A stretch of DNA of 64,000 nucleotides from a virus. Made by a program: the position numbers and the translations under genes. The stretch is taken from the IMG/VR virus record IMGVR_UViG_3300042433_000146, positions 1-64,000 of that record; one strand, 5' to 3'. How positions within the stretch are numbered: the stretch's first letter is position 1; each line of letters starts with the position of its first letter. Below are positions 4,801-61,591 of this stretch, one piece after another. Under the pieces are notes generated by a model, which saw nothing but the letters and a program-made list of their open reading frames with translations, searched no databases and was not told the origin of the DNA.

Positions 4801-5634
4801 ATGTCTATCGTACACGCCATCAAATCCCTGCTAGCTCTTTCAGTTGGAGACGCTTTCGGGGAAAACGAGTTACGGATCGTCCTGCCACGCGACGGCGGTC
4901 CACAGCGATATTTCTGGACCGACGATACCGCAATGGCAATCTCTATCGTCCGGTGTCTGGCGGAAGACGGTCGTATCCTTCAGGACAAACTAGCCGGGTA
5001 CTTTGCCGAACGGTACCATGCCGATCCTCAGCGCGGATATGGTCGCGGTACGGCCAGTATGTTGGATGCCATCTATCAGACGGGTGAATGGCGGCAACTC
5101 TCAGCGAATTGGTGGGGCGAAGGTATTGGGTCATTCGGCAACGGCGCGGCTATGCGCGTCGCTCCCCTTGGCGCATTCTATACCGACATCGACACCGTGG
5201 TGCAAGAGGCCCGCTACAGTGCGCAAGTGACCCACGACCACCCGGAAGCCATCGCGGGCGCTATCGGCGTCGCTGTGGCCGCATTGCTGGCAACGCATAG
5301 CACATGGTCATGGGACGCAATCATCGGCGCAATCCCTCCGTCCGTCGTCCGGGATCGTACCGTCCACGTGAGTCAAATGGGAAGGGAATCTCATCTTACA
5401 GTCGCGGGCGCGGTCGGTAAAGGATCTGAAGTGTCGGCAATGGACACCGTACCGTACTGTCTATGGGCGGCGCATCGGGCGTTGGTTGTTAATGACTTTG
5501 CGGAATCCATGCAACAGATCACCAGCGTGGGCGGTGATACCGACACCAATTGCGCCATCGTCGCGGGCATTATCGGCAATCGTGTCACCATCCCACAAGA
5601 TTGGATCGACCGGACGGAGAAGTTCAATGTTTGA
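4801..5634 (+). CDS. ADP-ribosylglycohydrolase (DraG/ARH family)
   Basis: GDAFG, WTDDT, GNGAAMR, THDHP, GGDTDTNCAIVAG motifs. Confidence 0.93.
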   Translation: MSIVHAIKSLLALSVGDAFGENELRIVLPRDGGPQRYFWTDDTAMAISIVRCLAEDGRILQDKLAGYFAERYHADPQRGYGRGTASMLDAIYQTGEWRQLSANWWGEGIGSFGNGAAMRVAPLGAFYTDIDTVVQEARYSAQVTHDHPEAIAGAIGVAVAALLATHSTWSWDAIIGAIPPSVVRDRTVHVSQMGRESHLTVAGAVGKGSEVSAMDTVPYCLWAAHRALVVNDFAESMQQITSVGGDTDTNCAIVAGIIGNRVTIPQDWIDRTEKFNV

Positions 5635-9057: not shown

Positions 9058-9432
9058 GTGAAGACTTACCGACAGTTCATGGCCGAACAGAATTTGATGT
9101 ACCACGGGACACCCGCCGCGAATCTGAAGACGATTCAGAAGATCGGGTTGCGGCCTATGATCGGTGACAACAAAGAAACCGGCGAAGATGACGATCCCCG
9201 GTATCCACGGGTCCACCTGACCAAATCCCTGACGACGGCAAAATGGTATGCCAAGGGCGGCGTGAATGCCAAACCGTTCAGTCACAAGCGACAGATCAAA
9301 GGCGTCGTCCTAGTGATCGATGTGGATCTTCTCCCGAACCATCGCTTCATGAATGATCCGCATGAGCATATGGCGGTCATGACGGCCAAACCGATCCCGC
9401 CGGATGCGATTGTGGATGTGCTCCCGGCCTAA
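9058..9432 (+). CDS. stand-alone Tpt1/KptA-like NAD-binding (ART-fold) protein with capsid-targeting-like N-terminus
   Basis: YHGT...I..IGLRP...VHLT...TA...VLVID...IPPDAI aligns by eye to the KptA C-lobe; N-terminus MKTYRQFMAE. Confidence 0.7.
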   Translation: MKTYRQFMAEQNLMYHGTPAANLKTIQKIGLRPMIGDNKETGEDDDPRYPRVHLTKSLTTAKWYAKGGVNAKPFSHKRQIKGVVLVIDVDLLPNHRFMNDPHEHMAVMTAKPIPPDAIVDVLPA

Positions 9433-12906: not shown

Positions 12907-13374
12907 TTAGCGTACCTGCTTTCTGGAGAGGGTCCGGGTCTTGCGACCGGAGAGGACATTGACGACGGTCTTATCGAAACCGTAGGCGGCGGTCATTTCG
13001 TAGCGCTCTTCCATCGTCACTTGCCGGGTGGCTTCGGCGGCGCGGTATTGGGTGATGAAGATCGCCATGTTCAGGGCATACTCACGGGCCTGAAGTTCAG
13101 CGTTGAAGGCCGGGATGCGGGCGATGAAGGTTTCGACGCAGATGTCGGGCGAAATGATGGAGTCGTTTGACTTCCACCGGAAGACGCCGGTGGCATCGAC
13201 GTAGCACTCTTTCTTCTTGGTGCGGGCGTTGGCCGGGTTGCCGGGAATCTCGTTTATCGTGATGACGTATTCGTTACCGGCGGCGGCGATGGTCAGTTCA
13301 TAGGACCAGCCGGACACGGTACCGGGAATCGTGCGCCGATCACCGGTGAAGCTGTCTTTCAGAATCGTTGTCAT
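12907..13374 (-). CDS. hypothetical protein
   Basis: MTTILKDSF start, SD GGAGAG, early promoter upstream. Confidence 0.6.
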   Translation of the reverse strand: MTTILKDSFTGDRRTIPGTVSGWSYELTIAAAGNEYVITINEIPGNPANARTKKKECYVDATGVFRWKSNDSIISPDICVETFIARIPAFNAELQAREYALNMAIFITQYRAAEATRQVTMEERYEMTAAYGFDKTVVNVLSGRKTRTLSRKQVR

Positions 13375-13392: not shown

Positions 13393-13422
13393 AGAATACC
13401 CTGACATATAGGTCGGTGTCAA
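13393..13422 (-). promoter_or_regulatory. early promoter with palindrome shifted into the spacer
   Basis: TTGACA-18-TATTCT; GACATATAGGTC at 13403-13414. Confidence 0.75.
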
Positions 13423-13435
13423 GAGGGTGCGGAAG

Positions 13436-13482
13436 AAAAAATAACCCCGGCGGACTCTTGACGAAAGCCGCCGGGGTTTTCT
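13436..13482. terminator. bidirectional intrinsic terminator
   Basis: AACCCCGGCGG-14-CCGCCGGGGTT flanked by A and T tracts. Confidence 0.8.
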
Positions 13483-13532
13483 GTGGTTTTGGTCTTTGTT
13501 GGAGGAGGACTTACCGACAGAAACTTGGGTGT

Positions 13533-13630
13533 CCAGCACAGCGCTGAAGGACTCGAACCTTCATGCCCGCCCGCGCTTTGAACGTCAGAAGGCGGCGACT
13601 TTCCTGAGATTAGTCGAAGCGCTGTGCTGG
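13533..13630 (-). ncRNA. tRNA-like RNA with 19-nt anticodon loop and 13-bp acceptor stem
   Basis: D stem GACT/AGTC, stem CCGCC/GGCGG, T arm GAAGG-TTCGAGT-CCTTC, no CCA. Confidence 0.65.
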
Positions 13631-13652
13631 CCCGTCGTGATTGGTACCGGGA

Positions 13653-13949
13653 TCAGGACGGGGAACTCATGGACTCTTTCAATTCTCTCACTTTCCGGGC
13701 TTCGACGATTTCGTGAATGTTTCCGGCGATCCATTGTGCCGGGCCGAAACGTACTTTGCCCTTGGTGCTGGTGATAACGCGAAGGCGTTGATAGGTGCCG
13801 GTGCGGTCTTGGGCGATCAGGGCTTCAACGCAGTGCCGATTCTCTGGAAGGTGAGCGACAGCGACGGCGTTGAACTCAGCGCCGCCGGTGACGACTTCGA
13901 ACCGTTCCGGCAGGGATGCGATGATCGGCCAATTGAATTCCGCGATCAT
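13653..13949 (-). CDS. hypothetical protein
   Basis: 98 aa, coupled to neighbours. Confidence 0.55.
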   Translation of the reverse strand: MIAEFNWPIIASLPERFEVVTGGAEFNAVAVAHLPENRHCVEALIAQDRTGTYQRLRVITSTKGKVRFGPAQWIAGNIHEIVEARKVRELKESMSSPS

Positions 13950-17090: not shown

Positions 17091-17165
17091 TGGGGTGATC
17101 GGTGAGAATTGAACTCACATGGACGGATTCACAGTCCGCCGCCTAAACCATTCGGCCACGACCAC
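17091..17165 (-). tRNA. trnH: tRNA-His(GUG), C73, no encoded G-1
   Basis: Cloverleaf, loop CTGTGAA, CCA encoded. Confidence 0.92.
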
Positions 17166-17195
17166 AATCGATGCCCCGGAAGAGTGGGGCGAACT

Positions 17196-17525
17196 TTATG
17201 AGTGCGCATAATGCTCTATGGCATGACAATTGGCACAAAGAATATCACACTTGGAAATTTCTTTTTCAATTCGTTTGATCGACCAGCCTTCGTTCACCGC
17301 TTTTGCGATACATATATCTTTTTCGATTGGATTTCGGTGATGAAAGTGTAGTGCCGCCGGATGATCGAATCCACATCGTTCACATTGAAGCGTCTGCTTG
17401 TGTTCTTTGAACCATTGATATATCGCTTGTTTGCGTTGATTTTTCTGGTCGATGACTTGTTGTCTATTTCTTTGATACCATCGTCGTGAAGCCGCGCGCG
17501 TATCTTCGATGTTGCGATATGCCAT
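17196..17525 (-). mobile_element. HNH endonuclease gene in tRNA cluster (putative homing endonuclease)
   Basis: CERCG...LHFHH...LCANCHAIEH; TAAGTA 6 nt upstream. Confidence 0.8.
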
Positions 17526-17556
17526 CAAAAATACTTAGACGACACCGACACAAAAT

Positions 17557-17630
17557 TGGCTCCGGGTCAGGGATTCGAACCCCGATAGGAGGCTTCAAAG
17601 ACCTCCGTCCTACCTTTAGACGAACCCGGA
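17557..17630 (-). tRNA. trnQ: tRNA-Gln(UUG), canonical
   Basis: U1-A72, G73, loop CTTTGAA, CCA. Confidence 0.95.
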
Positions 17631-17635
17631 ATGAA

Positions 17636-17721
17636 TGGTCAGGTACGGGAGTCGAACCCGCATTGTCGCCTTGGATTGTGCGCGCCGTTGCGACTTCTTA
17701 CCGATTAGAAGAACCCGACCA
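17636..17721 (-). ncRNA. tRNA-like RNA with enlarged anticodon loop
   Basis: 9-bp TGGTCGGGT/ACCTGACCA stem, D stem CTTC/GAAG, T arm GCGGG-TTCGACT-CCCGT, ~20-nt loop in the anticodon arm. Confidence 0.6.
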
Positions 17722-17727
17722 CAAACT

Positions 17728-17815
17728 TGGCTGGCGCGGGTGGAATCGAACCACCGATGTCACGTGGACACTAGTTTCAGAGACTAGCGGCTTTACCAAC
17801 GTCGCCTACACGCCA
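17728..17815 (-). tRNA. tRNA with Gln anticodon CUG and long variable arm (88 nt)
   Basis: CTAGT-CTCTGAA-ACTAG; V arm TGTC-CACGT-GACA; U1-A72, G73, CCA. Confidence 0.85.
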
Positions 17816-17820
17816 ATATA

Positions 17821-18033
17821 CTAACCTTCGAACTCAGCGGGCCGTCCTTGGACGGCCCACTTTTCATGCTTGGCCGCATGCTGGTGGGTTTGCCCGAACG
17901 CGATGAGCGAACCGGGGCATAGATCACAGCCGACATACGGGAAATGTGGTGGGGCATCCCATCCAGCACGGAAGGCTTCTTCCGCGTCGCTGAATTGTTT
18001 CTCGAAGCCACAGCACTGACATTTCAGAGTCAT
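17821..18033 (-). CDS. small Zn-binding hypothetical protein
   Basis: CQCCG...CDLCP, between tRNAs. Confidence 0.6.
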   Translation of the reverse strand: MTLKCQCCGFEKQFSDAEEAFRAGWDAPPHFPYVGCDLCPGSLIAFGQTHQHAAKHEKWAVQGRPAEFEG

Positions 18034-18053
18034 AGTACCACTCTATCACTGAT

Positions 18054-18127
18054 TGGCTCCCGATCATGGATTCGAACCACGATTAAGTGAGTCAGAGTCA
18101 CCCGTCCTACCGTTAGACGAATCGGGA
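18054..18127 (-). tRNA. trnQ: tRNA-Gln(CUG), canonical
   Basis: U1-A72, G73, loop CTCTGAC, CCA. Confidence 0.95.
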
Positions 18128-18131
18128 ATGT

Positions 18132-18221
18132 TGGCTGCGGCGGAAGGAATCGAACCTTCGATGCTCACATGGAGCGTCTGTTTCAAAGACAGGTGGCTTT
18201 ACCAGCGTCGCCTACACCGCA
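18132..18221 (-). tRNA. tRNA with Gln anticodon UUG and long variable arm (90 nt)
   Basis: CTGT-CTTTGAA-ACAG; V arm GCTC-CATGT-GAGC; U1-A72, G73, CCA. Confidence 0.85.
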
Positions 18222-18228
18222 ATGGAGT

Positions 18229-18305
18229 TGGTAGCGTAGACGGGATTCGAACCCGCGATTTCCACTTTGAGAGAGTGGTGACTTAAGCCTCTTGTCAACT
18301 ACGCC
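18229..18305 (-). tRNA. trnE: tRNA-Glu(CUC)
   Basis: CCACT-CTCTCAA-AGTGG, CCA. Confidence 0.93.
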
Positions 18306-18685
18306 ATGTTGTAACTTGTATATGCGTCTTCGGGTTTGCGTGGAGCACAGAACCGACACAACTGAACTTCGAGCGGCACCACGATGAGAAGCATACTGGC
18401 ATTCCGTCCGCATTTGGTACAGTGCATCGGGCCGGAATTGCTAGTCTTGCGTAACTTGCTATGATCCTTCATCACCATGTCGTGTTTGGTCGGCATCATG
18501 ATGTTGTCTTCATCGACCAGTAGAGCCGTCTGTTGATTCTGATGGAACCGTTGTCGGGACCGGCGGAACTTCTTTTCGCCGCGTTTCTTTTTGGCGGCAC
18601 CATGTTTTCCCCGGCAATGGTCACCGGGCGGGCAAGTGTAATCTCGTTCATCGACGAAGTTTCGGTTGTGATTTGTCTTCGGCAT
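18299..18685 (-). CDS. basic hypothetical protein with CxxC motifs
   Basis: 128 aa between tRNAs. Confidence 0.5.
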   Translation of the reverse strand: MPKTNHNRNFVDERDYTCPPGDHCRGKHGAAKKKRGEKKFRRSRQRFHQNQQTALLVDEDNIMMPTKHDMVMKDHSKLRKTSNSGPMHCTKCGRNASMLLIVVPLEVQLCRFCAPRKPEDAYTSYNMA

Positions 18686-18690
18686 GATGT

Positions 18691-18767
18691 TGGTAGGCCC
18701 GGCTGGATTTGAACCAACGTTTGTCGCTAATCAGGCGACCGTTCTGATTCCGCTGAACTACAGGCCC
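18691..18767 (-). tRNA. trnI: tRNA-Ile(GAU) with atypical U37
   Basis: GTCGC-CTGATTA-GCGAC, CCA. Confidence 0.85.
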
Positions 18768-18788
18768 ATGAGAAACTAAATTTGACTA

Positions 18789-18941
18789 ATGTTTATCACT
18801 GCTTTCTTCTTCTACTTGATCGTTGCGATTGTTGCTCGAATGATCCGTTCTTATGCGAATCACCAGTGGTACATCTTTCAGATCGATGACCAGTATGAGA
18901 AGTATTTTGGTCCCGAAGTCGGTAGTCGAAACCGCATCTGA
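18789..18941 (+). CDS. 50-aa membrane peptide antisense to the tRNA cluster (not in ORF track)
   Basis: MFITAFFFYLIVAIVARMIRS...; TAAATT 6 nt upstream. Confidence 0.5.
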   Translation: MFITAFFFYLIVAIVARMIRSYANHQWYIFQIDDQYEKYFGPEVGSRNRI

Positions 18942-18984
18942 CGGTCCACAGCCGTCCGCTTTTGCCGCTTAAGCTACATCGGGA
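18908..18984 (-). tRNA. trnH: atypical tRNA-His(GUG), A73, U53-A61
   Basis: GACGG-CTGTGGA-CCGTC, mismatches in acceptor and T stems, CCA. Confidence 0.7.
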
Positions 18985-18989
18985 GTTTT

Positions 18990-19067
18990 TGGTGTTCCTG
19001 ACCGGATTCGAACCGGCGTTCTCACCTTGAAAGGGTGGCGTCCTAGACCAGACTAGACGACAGGAAC
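18990..19067 (-). tRNA. trnE: tRNA-Glu(UUC), canonical
   Basis: Loop CTTTCAA, CCA. Confidence 0.95.
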
Positions 19068-19079
19068 ATTGAGGGGTGG

Positions 19080-19190
19080 TTAGTCCGCCCGGTTGCGCTT
19101 CCACAGTTTGTATGCCGTGACCGCGCCGATTACTGCGAAGTCACCGAAAGCCAGCGTAGCCCCGGCGACGTACAGCAAAGTCTCTTCCAT
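19080..19190 (-). CDS. 36-aa membrane peptide (not in ORF track)
   Basis: MEETLLYVAGATLAFGDFAVIGAVTAYKLWKRNRAD, SD GGGGAG. Confidence 0.5.
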   Translation of the reverse strand: MEETLLYVAGATLAFGDFAVIGAVTAYKLWKRNRAD

Positions 19191-19214
19191 TGTTCGTTCT
19201 CCCCGGATTGAATT

Positions 19215-19292
19215 TGGTAGCGTGTATGGGATTCGAACCCATGATCTCCGATTTGAAGGACCGGCGGCTTAATCCATCTTGCCTAACACGCC
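19215..19292 (-). tRNA. trnE: tRNA-Glu(UUC) with atypical C33
   Basis: CCGGT-CCTTCAA-ATCGG, CCA. Confidence 0.85.
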
Positions 19293-19412
19293 ATGACGAT
19301 CACTGGCCGGTGGGGTATCCGCCGTTTGTCCTACCCGGACACGTGCTACCCATCCTCCGTTTGCTTGTCTTGCCAGCGAACTACACTGTTGAGCGCTACA
19401 ACAGCGATCTTG

Positions 19413-19613
19413 TTACCACGACCGAAGTGTCACATCTTTGCCACAGTTGGCACAGACGATCCATTCGCGTCCATCGGGTCCACCACTGATATCCTTACCG
19501 GAGTACTTCATGATGTCATTCTGGACGAATTCCAGTGTGGCACCACAAGAGCGACAAACCGCTCTTTGCCGAACTTCGACAGGTGGATCGATGCTGATGA
19601 TTTTGACGGCCAT
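19413..19613 (-). CDS. Zn-ribbon hypothetical protein
   Basis: CRSCG...CANCG. Confidence 0.65.
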   Translation of the reverse strand: MAVKIISIDPPVEVRQRAVCRSCGATLEFVQNDIMKYSGKDISGGPDGREWIVCANCGKDVTLRSW

Positions 19614-19620
19614 GTGATTT

Positions 19621-19698
19621 TGGTACCAGCGGGGTGAATCGAACACCCGACCTCTTCGTTATGAGCGAAGCGCTCTGAACCTGCTGAGCTACGCTGGC
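19621..19698 (-). tRNA. tRNA(CAU), elongator Met or Ile2
   Basis: CTTCG-CTCATAA-CGAAG, CCA. Confidence 0.9.
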
Positions 19699-19786
19699 AT
19701 GGGCGCGGGCCGAACCTTTCAGTAGAACCGTGCATGGTTTTTAACGGAGCCGACCGCCTCATGCACGCGGACACCGCGATAAAGAA

Positions 19787-20224
19787 TCATTTGGTGGTCG
19801 TGGATGGACTTGAACCATCTGCCTCAGTCTTATCAGGACTGCGCTCTGCCAGTTGAGCTACACGACCATATTCGGTTTCCAGCATATCTATCACTTCGTC
19901 GCCATACTGTCTGAAATGTTCAATGGCTTTGCGGTGCATTTCTTCCGCTTCGAGCCATGTGGAGCATCGGGTTTGATAACTTTCCCAATCGCGTTCCCAT
20001 TTCTCACTATAGACTTCGTGTTCCATGTCGATCCACGCCATCGTTTCGAACAGGATGGGCGGACCATCACCGAACTGGTGATTGATACCAAGGAAAACCG
20101 TTGAGATTGTTACCGGGCCAACTTTTGTGAGAGCTACCCGGCGGGACGAATCATCTTCAAACATCATTGCCAATTCCAAAGGGCTTTCCACCGGGACGGG
20201 TGTCTGTCCTATGAGAATGTACAT
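19787..20224 (-). CDS. conserved phage hypothetical protein; frame runs through tRNA-Ile
   Basis: STVFLGINHQFGDGPPILFETM...RCSTWLEA. Confidence 0.65.
   Translation of the reverse strand: MYILIGQTPVPVESPLELAMMFEDDSSRRVALTKVGPVTISTVFLGINHQFGDGPPILFETMAWIDMEHEVYSEKWERDWESYQTRCSTWLEAEEMHRKAIEHFRQYGDEVIDMLETEYGRVAQLAERSPDKTEADGSSPSTTTK
19792..19867 (-). tRNA. trnI: tRNA-Ile(GAU), canonical
   Basis: CAGTC-CTGATAA-GACTG, CCA. Confidence 0.95.
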
Positions 20225-20264
20225 GTGATGCCGCGATGATCGCATATCAAGAGCCTATCATGTT

Positions 20265-20356
20265 TGGTGGATGGGGTAGGATTTGAACCTACAGTGTTTC
20301 CCGCAAGGGGTGGCGGTTTTACAGACCGCTGCCTTCACCATTCGGCGCACCCATCC
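20265..20356 (-). tRNA. trnY: tRNA-Tyr(GUA)
   Basis: GCGGT-CTGTAAA-ACCGC, long V arm, CCA. Confidence 0.92.
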
Positions 20357-20377
20357 ATGTTGGTTAGTCGATGAGTT

Positions 20378-20467
20378 TGGTGGGCGTGGCTGGATTCGAA
20401 CCAGCAAGGCTCCGAAGGAGCACCGGGGTTACAGCCCGGCACCGGGACCAGTTCCGATATCACGCCC
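20378..20467 (-). tRNA. trnY: tRNA-Tyr(GUA), second copy with A8 and weak D stem
   Basis: CCGGG-CTGTAAC-CCCGG, V arm with cUUCGg, CCA. Confidence 0.88.
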
Positions 20468-23445: not shown

Positions 23446-24679
23446 ACTGGTCGATGAGGAACTGGACGAATTCGTTTTTTTCAATGGGTAGCCATCCTTG
23501 CTTCACATAAGAGTCAATCGTTTTCCGACTCACATGAATGAGGTTCGAAATCACGCTTCGGGAGAGTACTTCAGGAAGCGCCCGGTGCATCGTCTGGAAG
23601 TATTCCTTCCGTTTCCGGGTGCTCAATTCTAACAGGCTTTGAACGAAACCGTCCAGTGCTTTGGTTTGGCCTTTGGTGCTTGGGATGACGATCTTCTTGG
23701 TGAAGACGATGCCATGTTTGTCGCGGATGGTCTTGACGAATTTCTCTGTGCGGGATTGGCCTTTGGCTTTGAGAATGCGCCGGACATCAGCGATGCATCC
23801 TTGATTGTCTTTCAGGAGTTGAACGATTTCGGCTTCATCGTCGCGGAACCGATAATTGGTTCCGTTGCCGACGTTGAGTTCCTTCATGCGCCGTTCGACG
23901 GCCCACACCGGCCAGTCGATGATGCTACCGACCTTGGTGAATTCTCCGGGATAGGTGCGCATGACCTTATCGATTTCCGGGGTGGCGTGATACTTGGGAG
24001 AGCCGACCGGACGACCGTGCCCGATTTCTTTCCGTCGTTTCCAGATGGCTTGCCGGGGCCATCCGATCTGTTGGGCGATGTCTTTGGTCGGAGTCTCAGA
24101 AATGATGAGGGCATCGATTTCAGGTGTTGACACGTATTTTCTCTGACGTTCCTGTTTTGCTTGGGGCGGTTTGGGTGGATTCTTCGGACGACCTTTCCGG
24201 CCTATGCGGGCGATCAGATCCTCTTCAGTGAAGACGCCCAAGCTCAACCCGTATCGCATGACCCGTTCGGCGGACCAGTCCAGTTCCTTGGCGGCGCGGG
24301 ACGTATGCAATCCGTGCTTGTGTAGGATGGCAATTTCCTCTTCGGTGCATTTCAACTTTTCCGGGCGGCGGAACCGGTCATACTTGGGTGGTTCTGTCTT
24401 GGTTGATTCTGGCCGGAACGTCAACAGTACCGGGACCAACCAAGGACATCGAACGAAAAATTCCATCCACGACAAAAACAGTTTGCGGCTGGCACAAAAT
24501 GTGGCGAATAAAAAGGCAGTGCGGCTATTTTTCGTTCTTTCTATTTCGAGGGCAAGACGACGATTGGCCTTTTCTTCCTTCTTCTGTTGCTTTAACAGCC
24601 GGGCGGCTTCTTTCTCCGCTTCTCTGGCGAAACGCCGCCGCATGGAAGCGGCGTGCCGTTCGAGTCGTTTGTTCCACAT
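23384..24679 (-). CDS. multi-HTH DNA-binding protein
   Basis: Several HTH-like units (TSRAAKELDWSAERV, TKDIAQQIGWPRQAI, SRSVISNLIHVSRKTI). Confidence 0.6.
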   Translation of the reverse strand: MWNKRLERHAASMRRRFAREAEKEAARLLKQQKKEEKANRRLALEIERTKNSRTAFLFATFCASRKLFLSWMEFFVRCPWLVPVLLTFRPESTKTEPPKYDRFRRPEKLKCTEEEIAILHKHGLHTSRAAKELDWSAERVMRYGLSLGVFTEEDLIARIGRKGRPKNPPKPPQAKQERQRKYVSTPEIDALIISETPTKDIAQQIGWPRQAIWKRRKEIGHGRPVGSPKYHATPEIDKVMRTYPGEFTKVGSIIDWPVWAVERRMKELNVGNGTNYRFRDDEAEIVQLLKDNQGCIADVRRILKAKGQSRTEKFVKTIRDKHGIVFTKKIVIPSTKGQTKALDGFVQSLLELSTRKRKEYFQTMHRALPEVLSRSVISNLIHVSRKTIDSYVKQGWLPIEKNEFVQFLIDQCDYMSAMQGNEHQETATANG

Positions 24680-24717
24680 TCCTTGAACATTCTACCACAA
24701 CGACTCGTTTCTCAATG

Positions 24718-24738
24718 TGATACAATGACTTGTATGTC
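24718..24738 (+). promoter_or_regulatory. extended -10 promoter with palindrome covering the start codon
   Basis: TGA-TACAAT, then GACTTGTATGTC at 24727-24738. Confidence 0.7.
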
Positions 24739-25768
24739 TGATCTGCTCAGTCGTGATGAATTTCGAGAAGGCGTATTCCGCCGGGACGGTCATAAGTGTG
24801 TGATCTGTCAGGCGGCGGCACAAGACGCCCATCACATCCTTGAACGACGATTGTTCCACGACGGCGGCTACTACATGGATAACGGTGCGTCATTGTGTGG
24901 TGATTGTCACATGAAAGCGGAACAGACTGTTCTGTCGTGTGATGACATTCGGCGGGCCGCTGGTATCACGCGGGTGGTGCTACCGGAGCACATGTACCGT
25001 GACGCGATCTATGACAAATGGGGAAACATCGTCCAGCCCAACGGAACACGAATTCCGGGCGAACTGATGGAAGACGAATCTGTGCGGAAGGTGATGATGC
25101 CTTTGATCGCGGCGGGCATATTCGTCAAATATGTCAAGTACCCACGGACATATCATGTGCCGTGGAGTGAAGGGATCACTGATGATGAACGCGCCTTTGA
25201 CGATCCCGACCGGCTCTTCTGTGGGAAAGAAATCGTCATCACGGAGAAGATGGACGGAGAGAACACGACGCTGTACAGCGACTATCTTCACGCACGAAGT
25301 ATCGATAGCGGTTCGCATCCGTCGCGGGGTTGGGTCAAGAATCTCCACGCGCAAATTGCTCATCATATCCCGACCGGATGGCGGATTTGTGGAGAGAATC
25401 TGTATGCCCGGCACACCTTGCCGTATGATGATCTCCCAAGTTTCTTTCTGGCATTTTCGATTTGGGATGATCGAAATGTTTGTCTCTCTTGGGACGCCAC
25501 AGTCGAGTATGCATCAATCTTAGACCTTCACATGGTCCCGGTGATGTACCGTGGGCCGTATGATGGCAAGCTGGTGCGGGAGATTCACACACGACTCGAT
25601 TTGAAGCGACAGGAAGGGTATGTGATGCGGGTGGCTGATGAGTTTCCCTATCGGGCCTTCCGGCAATCCGTGGGGAAGTTTGTGCGCCGGGCACACGTCG
25701 GCACCGCACACAACTGGATGATGCAAGCCGTGGTTCCGAATGCGATGAAGCGGTCAGTTACTCTCTGA
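24734..25768 (+). CDS. HNH-domain / RNA ligase fusion
   Basis: CVICQ..DAHH..LCGDCH N-terminus; YPRTYH, EKMDGEN, GEN, EGYV ligase motifs. Confidence 0.8.
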   Translation: MSDLLSRDEFREGVFRRDGHKCVICQAAAQDAHHILERRLFHDGGYYMDNGASLCGDCHMKAEQTVLSCDDIRRAAGITRVVLPEHMYRDAIYDKWGNIVQPNGTRIPGELMEDESVRKVMMPLIAAGIFVKYVKYPRTYHVPWSEGITDDERAFDDPDRLFCGKEIVITEKMDGENTTLYSDYLHARSIDSGSHPSRGWVKNLHAQIAHHIPTGWRICGENLYARHTLPYDDLPSFFLAFSIWDDRNVCLSWDATVEYASILDLHMVPVMYRGPYDGKLVREIHTRLDLKRQEGYVMRVADEFPYRAFRQSVGKFVRRAHVGTAHNWMMQAVVPNAMKRSVTL

Positions 25769-61514: not shown

Positions 61515-61591
61515 TGGTAGCGGGAGTGGGAGTTGAACCCACCTAGTACAGCTTATGAGACTGTCGTGCGCACCCGCTCAGCTTTCCCGCA
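61515..61591 (-). tRNA. tRNA(CAU) with U1.U72 mismatch (initiator-like, lacking the GGG/CCC anticodon stem)
   Basis: ACAGT-CTCATAA-GCTGT, CCA. Confidence 0.8.

Follow-up and report, generated by a model that had tools for sequence, protein, structure and literature searches.

The window analysed here, a stretch of 64,000 nucleotides, is the first 64 kb of the 184,632-bp IMG/VR record IMGVR_UViG_3300042433_000146, which is 86% complete by CheckV. On its minus strand, 22 nt past the stop codon of the small gene P0001, lies a tRNA-shaped RNA element that is flanked by a hairpin on its 5' side and by a spacer and an intrinsic terminator on its 3' side (Table 1). An earlier note on this DNA had described an exact minus-strand cloverleaf with a 13-bp stem, a 19-nt loop and no CCA, together with the hairpin, the tail GTCCTCCTCCA and a strong terminator; the string that it quoted was read exactly at 13630-13533, and the accompanying parts are all present. 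Relatives of the locus keep the tRNA shape, and we favour, at a probability of about 0.45, the reading that the element is a non-decoding tRNA mimic, which would be matured from the 3' untranslated region (3' UTR) of an early operon and would serve as a protein-binding decoy or adaptor.

Table 1. Features of the locus that carries the tRNA-shaped element, in window coordinates
Feature	Position	Strand	Description or basis
Upstream gene P0001, 98 aa	13653-13949	minus	Last gene of the predicted early operon; open reading frame list and translation
5' hairpin	13631-13662	minus	8-bp stem, loop CCCGGUACCA; encloses the stop codon UGA (13655-13653)
tRNA-shaped RNA	13533-13630	minus	Exact cloverleaf, 13-bp terminal helix, 19-nt loop, no CCA
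Anticodon-loop replacement	13572-13590	minus	19 nt, UUCUGACGUUCAAAGCGCG; minimum free energy and RNAalifold structures
Variable spacer	13479-13532	minus	54 nt; contains GUCCUCCUCCA, which is GTCCTCCTCCA at 13510-13500
Intrinsic terminator	13436-13478	minus	Stem AACCCCGGCGG / CCGCCGGGGUU, then a U-run
Sigma-70-type promoter TTGACA-18-TATTCT	13393-13422	minus	Consensus scan, 10/12; for gene 12907-13374

The terminal helix of the element pairs CCAGCACAGCGCT (13630-13618) perfectly with AGCGCTGTGCTGG (13545-13533) and consists of a 7-bp acceptor helix and a 6-bp leader-trailer extension. U8 and C9 follow the acceptor helix, and the D arm (GACT / AATCTCAGGAA / AGTC) has a 4-bp stem with the loop AAUCUCAGGAA in RNA letters. 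The anticodon stem (CCGCC / GGCGG, 5 bp plus a U.G pair) surrounds the 19-nt loop, the variable region is 4 nt (GCAT), and no CCA follows the T arm (GAAGG / TTCGAGT / CCTTC). Folding of positions 13440-13670 by minimum free energy (MFE) gave the identical cloverleaf, with a z of -5.6 against shuffles. Within the 19-nt arm, both the MFE and the RNAalifold structures contain a U.G pair, a UCU bulge, a G-C pair, an A bulge and the hairpin CGUU-CAA-AGCG.

Standard tRNA detection does not call this element, as both a standard Rfam scan and ARAGORN at default settings missed it. The Infernal/Rfam search that had been proposed as a check recovered the element with the tRNA model (RF00005) under lax filters only, at 36.0 bits (gathering score 29, E 5e-6) and with a 14-nt loop insertion, and it returned no match to the YrlA family (RF02553). 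Only in its intron mode did ARAGORN report the element, as Gln(ctg) with a 12-nt intron. No parent tRNA emerged for the element, for which the highest identities among the tRNAs of the phage are all about 50 of 75. The record holds 43 canonical tRNAs, all of which encode CCA, as do the 15 of 15 in the window (17091-20467 and 61515-61591, minus strand). Directly before position 1, 12 of those 15 carry AU, preceded in 10 of the 12 by C to give CAU, which may be a shared leader or processing context; the 5' flank of the element lacks this AU/CAU leader.

Homologues of the locus were found by way of its neighbouring proteins. A blastn search with the locus against 50,697 phage records gave no match, exact-pattern and neighbour-protein scans of IMG/VR viral contigs revealed no relatives of the locus, and two near-identical phage fragments identified through a tail protein do not cover it. 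The two flanking proteins, however, have homologues at 54-92% identity in a large protein collection, and the contigs that encode these homologues yielded 14 loci with the same gene order and seven distinct intergenic versions. These fall into three lineages (the window with L012, L013 and L014; L006 with L007; and L004 alone), and the tRNA shape is kept in all seven.

A covariance model, R1, was built from the six closer sequences with L004, the most divergent, held out. R1 recovered L004 at full length (46 bits, E 2e-10), and every pair of its terminal helix is compensated. In alignment A5, in which the seven sequences were fitted to the model, 98.4% of the cells form standard pairs and 16 of the 32 pairs change on both sides, a result that none of 500 shuffles reached; in a control in which the 3' partners were slid, 34-46% were paired. 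RNAalifold independently gave the same cloverleaf, with an additional invariant U.G pair at the loop base. Each of the five helices has compensatory changes across the lineages, and the terminal helix, which has 12-14 bp in every lineage, changes both sides in 10 of its 13 pairs. Additionally, the nucleotides of the tRNA elbow (U8, A14, A15 with U48, G18-G19, A21 and the T-loop UUCRA) are invariant in all seven. Because seven distinct homologues keep the fold with covariation, the cloverleaf is more than chance. An alignment of homologues had been among the proposed checks and a tRNA-mimic RNA among the proposed readings; the covariation in seven sequences accords with the former, and the conservation of the whole fold supports the latter.

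The distribution of changes differs markedly between the parts of the element. Between the window and L007, the helix extension has changed at 6 of 12 positions, all compensated, whereas none of the 14 positions of the 7-bp acceptor and none of the 10 of the anticodon stem has changed, and the loop differs at 1 of 19. The sole loop difference between the window and L006/L007 is the middle base of the 'anticodon', U to A, while L004 has a 37-nt loop that forms a longer hairpin on the same base. Selection of the helix extension as a helix suggests that the extension survives in the functional RNA. A CAGCAA 'handle' was considered as a conserved feature of the element and ruled out, CAGCA being part of the covarying helix.

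A decaying tRNA pseudogene or a chance cloverleaf, with no function, would explain why the standard tRNA finders miss the element, and why its loop is aberrant and its CCA absent. Such a sequence would not be expected to show compensatory changes in five helices across lineages in which the flanking spacer is unalignable or deleted, nor to allow recovery of a held-out homologue at the E value given above, and we find this explanation scarcely credible. Judged from the comparison of sequences, the element is real and under selection. Among the relatives found, it is confined to one narrow clade of freshwater phages. A degenerate D-loop/T-loop scan of metagenome contigs produced 45 loci, of which R1 matched six (E up to 1), all ordinary tRNAs with normal loops; no further family member was among the 45. 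Distant homologues of the downstream protein (L069, L070) come without such an element.

A decoding or spliced tRNA is very unlikely. Four sequences have CUG as the 'anticodon' triplet, two have CAG and L004 has CAA, always on essentially the same class I body with U or A as the discriminator; a switch between Gln and Leu would thus come without any change in identity elements. In place of a 7-nt loop with a conserved anticodon there are 19 nt (37 in L004), and the insert, of about 30 nt in L004, has 12 nt in the other six sequences. Nor is there a bulge-helix-bulge, since the 5' strand holds all the unpaired bases (UCN plus A; UCAA in L004) and pairing along the 3' strand is unbroken. The arm is therefore a helix with a kink, in which 6 bp are followed by 5-6 bp (more in L004) and a small cap. 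At the opposite end of the molecule CCA is unencoded, and 5-7 bp join the 3' trailer to the leader. Two further interpretations of the arm were rejected: the distal loop UUCAAAG as the true anticodon loop (CAA) was ruled out by the 6-nt UGCAAG loop that L004 has there, and a K-turn at the UCU bulge was ruled out by eye, as the next position is a G-C pair and not a sheared G.A.

These features bear directly on the suggestion, made in the earlier note, of a protein-spliced intron of archaeal or eukaryotic type. No tRNA splicing endonuclease (PF01974), RtcB (PF01139) or CCA-adding enzyme was found in the 184-kb, 86% complete record, in searches whose positive controls matched. With no bulge-helix-bulge, a variable insert and triplet, and no splicing enzymes found in the record, that suggestion is not supported. 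The RNA ligase cited in its favour does exist: residues 192-343 of a 371-aa protein (window 24653-25768, plus strand) form an Rnl2-type ligase domain (PF09414), and the protein has a 190-aa N-terminal extension with a weak HNH match and no Rnl2 C-terminal domain. Rnl2-type RNA ligases are common in T4-like phages, and the presence of this one does not stand as evidence of splicing.

A less specific version of splicing would have a real tRNA, for Gln or Leu, whose short intron at 37/38 is cut by an unspecified nuclease and sealed by the phage ligase before CCA is added. ARAGORN's intron mode places its 12-nt intron at the canonical position, the phage encodes the ligase, and the loop opens with UUCUGAC, similar to the loop CUCUGAC in the phage's tRNA-Gln at 18054, a likeness that had been reported correctly. 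Furthermore, default ARAGORN finds no tRNA-Leu, -Ser or -Pro, and in intron mode Leu is called only once, for the anticodon-less element at 158041-158172. The missing bulge-helix-bulge and the failure to find EndA, RtcB or a CCA enzyme in the phage record nevertheless weigh against this scheme, as does a triplet that would specify Gln in one lineage and Leu in the other two, and this on a class I body whose discriminator is either U or A. All 43 real tRNAs differ from the element, whose acceptor end is extended and paired and carries no CCA. The phage sequence is present in lake-water metagenomes, and none of the sequencing runs that hold it is listed on record as RNA; two runs were labelled 'RNA?' as a guess. 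Contigs from these two runs cover the element without a joint, although contigs cannot show ends, strand or rare spliced forms. A close relative of the element also appears undeleted in a contig whose source run was guessed to be RNA, which is weak evidence for an unspliced form, as contigs drop rare forms. Taken together, we hold an intron-bearing tRNA to be very improbable.

Two tRNAs of class II, each beside a canonical tRNA-Gln, lie in the window at 17728-17815 and 18132-18221 (both minus strand). Their long variable arms are accompanied by the anticodon loops CUCUGAA and CUUUGAA, with the Gln anticodons CUG and UUG, and ARAGORN labelled one of them Phe.

The surroundings of the element point to a place at the end of a transcript. 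The consensus promoter scan found no promoter directly upstream, and the element is therefore predicted to be the 3' end of a small early operon; it would lie in the 3' UTR of three genes predicted to be transcribed together from about 14563 to 13436 on the minus strand. Homologues of P0001 (72-86% identity) are always found directly upstream of the element. Neither P0001 nor the other small neighbours (ten proteins in all) has a Pfam match, and the AlphaFold model of P0001, with a mean predicted local distance difference test score (pLDDT) of 46, is too poor for use. In five distinct sequences of the 5' hairpin, 97.5% of the cells pair and two of the eight pairs change on both sides, which 14 of 500 shuffles also reached; the hairpin thus appears to be kept, with modest covariation.

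Downstream of the element, the spacer of the relatives is unalignable or CUCUCC-like, and in the L007 lineage it is missing, so that the terminator directly follows the element. Alignment indicates that the spacer is not a conserved part of the element. The idea that CCUCCUCC acts as an anti-Shine-Dalgarno sequence is not sustained, given the CUCUCC-like tail in relatives and the loss of the whole spacer in the L007 lineage. A G+C-rich hairpin followed by a U-run is present in all homologues, with differing stem sequences, and the promoter beyond it is nearly invariant across all of them. That promoter serves a gene for a 155-aa protein (window 12907-13374, minus strand) whose C-terminal approximately 95 residues are shared by a family that counts more than 460 small proteins (E up to 0.001 in a representative library of 1.8 billion proteins). 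The window's own 155-aa protein has no Pfam match.

This location is the basis of the main rival to a tRNA mimic that acts in trans, namely a tRNA-like element that acts in cis as punctuation or for stability. Cleavage at the element by RNase P and/or RNase Z would leave an upstream mRNA that ends in the stop-codon hairpin, and the RNA would have no function in trans. A reading after the manner of t-elements and mascRNA is the main rival because it fits the 3' UTR place and the stop-codon hairpin. In all seven homologues the element lies 22 nt past the stop codon, between a conserved hairpin and a terminator. The window's element has no promoter of its own, and its conserved elbow is the part by which RNase P and RNase Z recognise a tRNA. 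Cases in which tRNA-like t-elements define the ends of mRNAs have been documented (PMC1920247). With a terminator hairpin 0-75 nt downstream, however, a further means of forming a 3' end seems needless, and the stretch best conserved between lineages is the replacement of the anticodon arm, for which a pure processing signal has no use. The leader-trailer helix should also hinder RNase P, from what is generally known of its substrates, and a similar element (17636-17720) sits inside a tRNA array, where punctuation is unneeded. We consider a purely cis-acting element possible, though unlikely.

We therefore return to the protein-binding tRNA mimic. A selected elbow, a bulged arm conserved in sequence, and a closing helix that is free in sequence and conserved in length together make up the design of such a mimic. 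In the proposed mechanism, the element would be transcribed early in infection as the 3' end of the three-gene operon of this uncultured freshwater T4-like phage. The element has all the features of the tRNA L-shape, namely the elbow nucleotides and stems of 7, 4, 5 and 5 bp, but both of the ends that serve a tRNA in translation are disabled. Its acceptor end lacks CCA and is locked in the 12-14 bp leader-trailer helix. Its anticodon loop is replaced by the continuous kinked helix, with the unpaired UCN and A all on the 5' strand. Factors that read the elbow (RNase P, RNase Z and modification enzymes) would recognise the RNA as a tRNA, and it would then accumulate as a stable small RNA or remain a domain of the 3' UTR. 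In either form it could act as a decoy or adaptor for a protein that grips tRNAs, with the conserved bulged arm as the specific contact. Candidate partners would be a host tRNA-directed nuclease or enzyme, or the phage's RNA-surveillance set of Ro60, Rnl2-type ligase and transfer-messenger RNA (tmRNA). The element may be a decoy for an anticodon nuclease, as one of the original suggestions had it.

Several points weigh against a mimic of this kind. The homologues represent only three lineages of the one clade, most of the double changes come from L004 alone, and the alignment behind the pair counts was fitted to the model. The fully paired leader and trailer might block RNase P, in which case the RNA would stay unreleased and act only in cis. 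A place just before the terminator in a 3' UTR equally fits a role in processing or stability. Lastly, the ends of the RNA, its processing and its partner are predictions made at the DNA level.

Among the candidate partners, Ro60 deserves separate treatment. Bacterial and phage Ro60 proteins bind Y RNAs that have a tRNA-mimic effector domain with no free CCA (PMC4201824); Y RNAs with tRNA-like domains are also described in bioRxiv 10.1101/312249, and a Ro60 of a Thermus phage has been reported (PMC12135203). The phage record encodes a canonical Ro60/Rsr (98584-100263, minus strand; 559 aa; TROVE 133 bits, vWA_Ro60 178 bits), with a macro-domain gene about 0.7 kb upstream, separated by one 223-aa open reading frame, and a vWA gene about 2 kb upstream. 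By analogy, the element could be a Y-RNA-like partner of this Ro60, a stem-closed RNA whose unpermuted tRNA body would recruit an effector as YrlA does for Rsr. The presence of Ro60, the known Y RNAs whose tRNA-like domains lack a free CCA (PMC4201824; 10.1101/312249), the long 5'/3' helix that closes the element and the bulged arm in place of an anticodon loop are all consistent with this role. Yet the element shares only the strand with the Ro60 gene, lying about 85 kb from it where a YrlA is expected within about 4 kb on the same strand. None of the seven sequences contains a GNCGAAN0-1G or CGAA motif, and the perfect terminal helix, free to vary in sequence, is unlike known Ro60 sites.

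Rfam at gathering thresholds found no YrlA or Y RNA anywhere in the genome. A better Y-RNA candidate is nevertheless available in it (about 65295-65495, minus strand), within the 286 nt that separate tRNA-Cys from tRNA-Ala. The 5' and 3' ends of this candidate form a 13-bp terminal stem, after which the 5' strand reads GCCGAAG, an instance of GNCGAAN0-1G; the body is branched, and the MFE is -87 kcal/mol for 211 nt. The tRNA-shaped element, which also has no RF02553 match, is thus improbable as the Ro60 partner.

Other genes of the phage were noted in the course of this analysis. An ADP-ribosylglycohydrolase is encoded at window 4801-5634 (plus strand; PF03747, 142 bits), which, with the macro-domain protein near Ro60, suggests a toolkit for the reversal of ADP-ribosylation. 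A reading of the open reading frame at 9058-9432 as a Tpt1-like enzyme found no Pfam support. The tail and baseplate proteins share only about 25% identity with those of T4-like phages of Pelagibacter, Synechococcus, Caulobacter and Ralstonia. A permuted, two-piece tmRNA (71531-71895, minus strand; RF04321 98 bits, beta_tmRNA 76 bits; tag ANSNVLAMAA) hints at a proteobacterial host, possibly a betaproteobacterium.

Further unusual tRNA-shaped RNAs occur in this genome. A second CCA-less tRNA shape (17636-17720, minus strand) has a 20-nt 'anticodon loop' and lies between two tRNA-Gln genes inside the tRNA array. It is the next-best R1 match in the genome, at 30.5 bits, which suggests a small class of such RNAs and not a single odd case. 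Its loop sequence is unrelated to that of the element. Three tRNA-framed RNAs that do encode CCA were also observed, at 64674-64775 (minus strand), 158041-158172 (plus strand) and 158179-158304 (plus strand), with partial copies near 164060-164140 and 156440-156500 (both plus strand). Class II variable arms and A73 occur in two of these frames. In place of an anticodon loop the frames have an extended arm of 37-47 nt; the arms share UUGCUGG-NNN-CAGCCG, a hairpin with the GNRA cap GCAA or GAGA, and GGUUAUCGC. Within these arms the helix CUUCAC/GUGAGG covaries with CUUCGUC/GAUGAAG, and the complementary strand is CCAGCAA. We tentatively raise the possibility, which we regard as doubtful, of an undescribed class of unpermuted tRNA mimics in freshwater phages that bear Ro60. 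It would comprise the element, the shape at 17636-17720 and perhaps the frames at 64.7 and 158 kb, with the loop exchanged for a protein-binding bulged hairpin, and its members would be decoys against host defences that target tRNAs, or Y-RNA-like adaptors.

Phage tRNA genes are usually explained by codon usage and, more recently, by escape from tRNA-cutting defences. A tRNA shape that is conserved without either of its translation ends would point to a third use, mimicry aimed at a protein. The element, of about 100 nt, is small and well defined; its covariation is clear, and so is its variable module. It also carries a warning for annotation, as tRNA finders run in intron mode will call such elements "tRNA-Gln with intron". 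Should either a Ro60 partnership or a block of tRNA nucleases prove true, the repertoire of Y RNAs and tRNA decoys would extend to T4-like freshwater phages.

YrlA, a type of Y RNA found in bacteria and mycobacteriophages (RF02553; Chen et al. 2014, PMC4201824; 10.1101/312249), is one of the known systems closest to the element. Like YrlA, the element would be a tRNA mimic that does not decode; it conserves the D and T arms and the tertiary contacts of tRNA, has no free CCA, carries an irregular or kinked helix for an anticodon stem, is closed by a terminal 5'/3' helix, and occurs in a genome with Ro60. YrlA, however, is circularly permuted, running from a 5' handle through (V), the T arm, an acceptor-like stem-loop and the D arm to a 3' handle (PMC4201824), with its ends on the anticodon side, whereas the element has the normal order and its ends on the acceptor side. 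Being unpermuted, without the GNCGAAN0-1G motif or an Rfam match, and far more than 4 kb from Ro60, the element does not fit the YrlA family.

The t-elements of plant mitochondria and the mascRNA of MALAT1 (PMC1920247) are likewise tRNA modules downstream of a coding region that have no usable anticodon and no encoded CCA. By analogy with them, the fold of the element would lie inside a longer transcript beside a coding region, from which it may be cleaved. Those RNAs are eukaryotic or organellar, whereas here a terminator sets the 3' end, the arm is conserved, and leader and trailer are fully paired. Archaeal and eukaryotic pre-tRNAs resemble the element in having extra nucleotides 3' of an anticodon-like triplet in the anticodon loop. 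They differ from it in that the element has no bulge-helix-bulge, a variable 'anticodon' and insert, and a paired acceptor end without CCA, and in that no splicing endonuclease was found in the phage record.

We know of no viral tRNA-like RNA in which a sealed acceptor helix of 12-14 bp is combined with a hairpin that replaces the anticodon loop. Murid herpesvirus 4 has tRNA-like genes whose RNAs are not aminoacylated. In these RNAs and in the phage candidates (PMC10690425), as in the element, the tRNA shape is kept and decoding is not expected, although hosts and enzymes differ. By its predicted fold and a function that we infer, the element would belong with the tRNA-mimic non-coding RNAs of bacteria and viruses.

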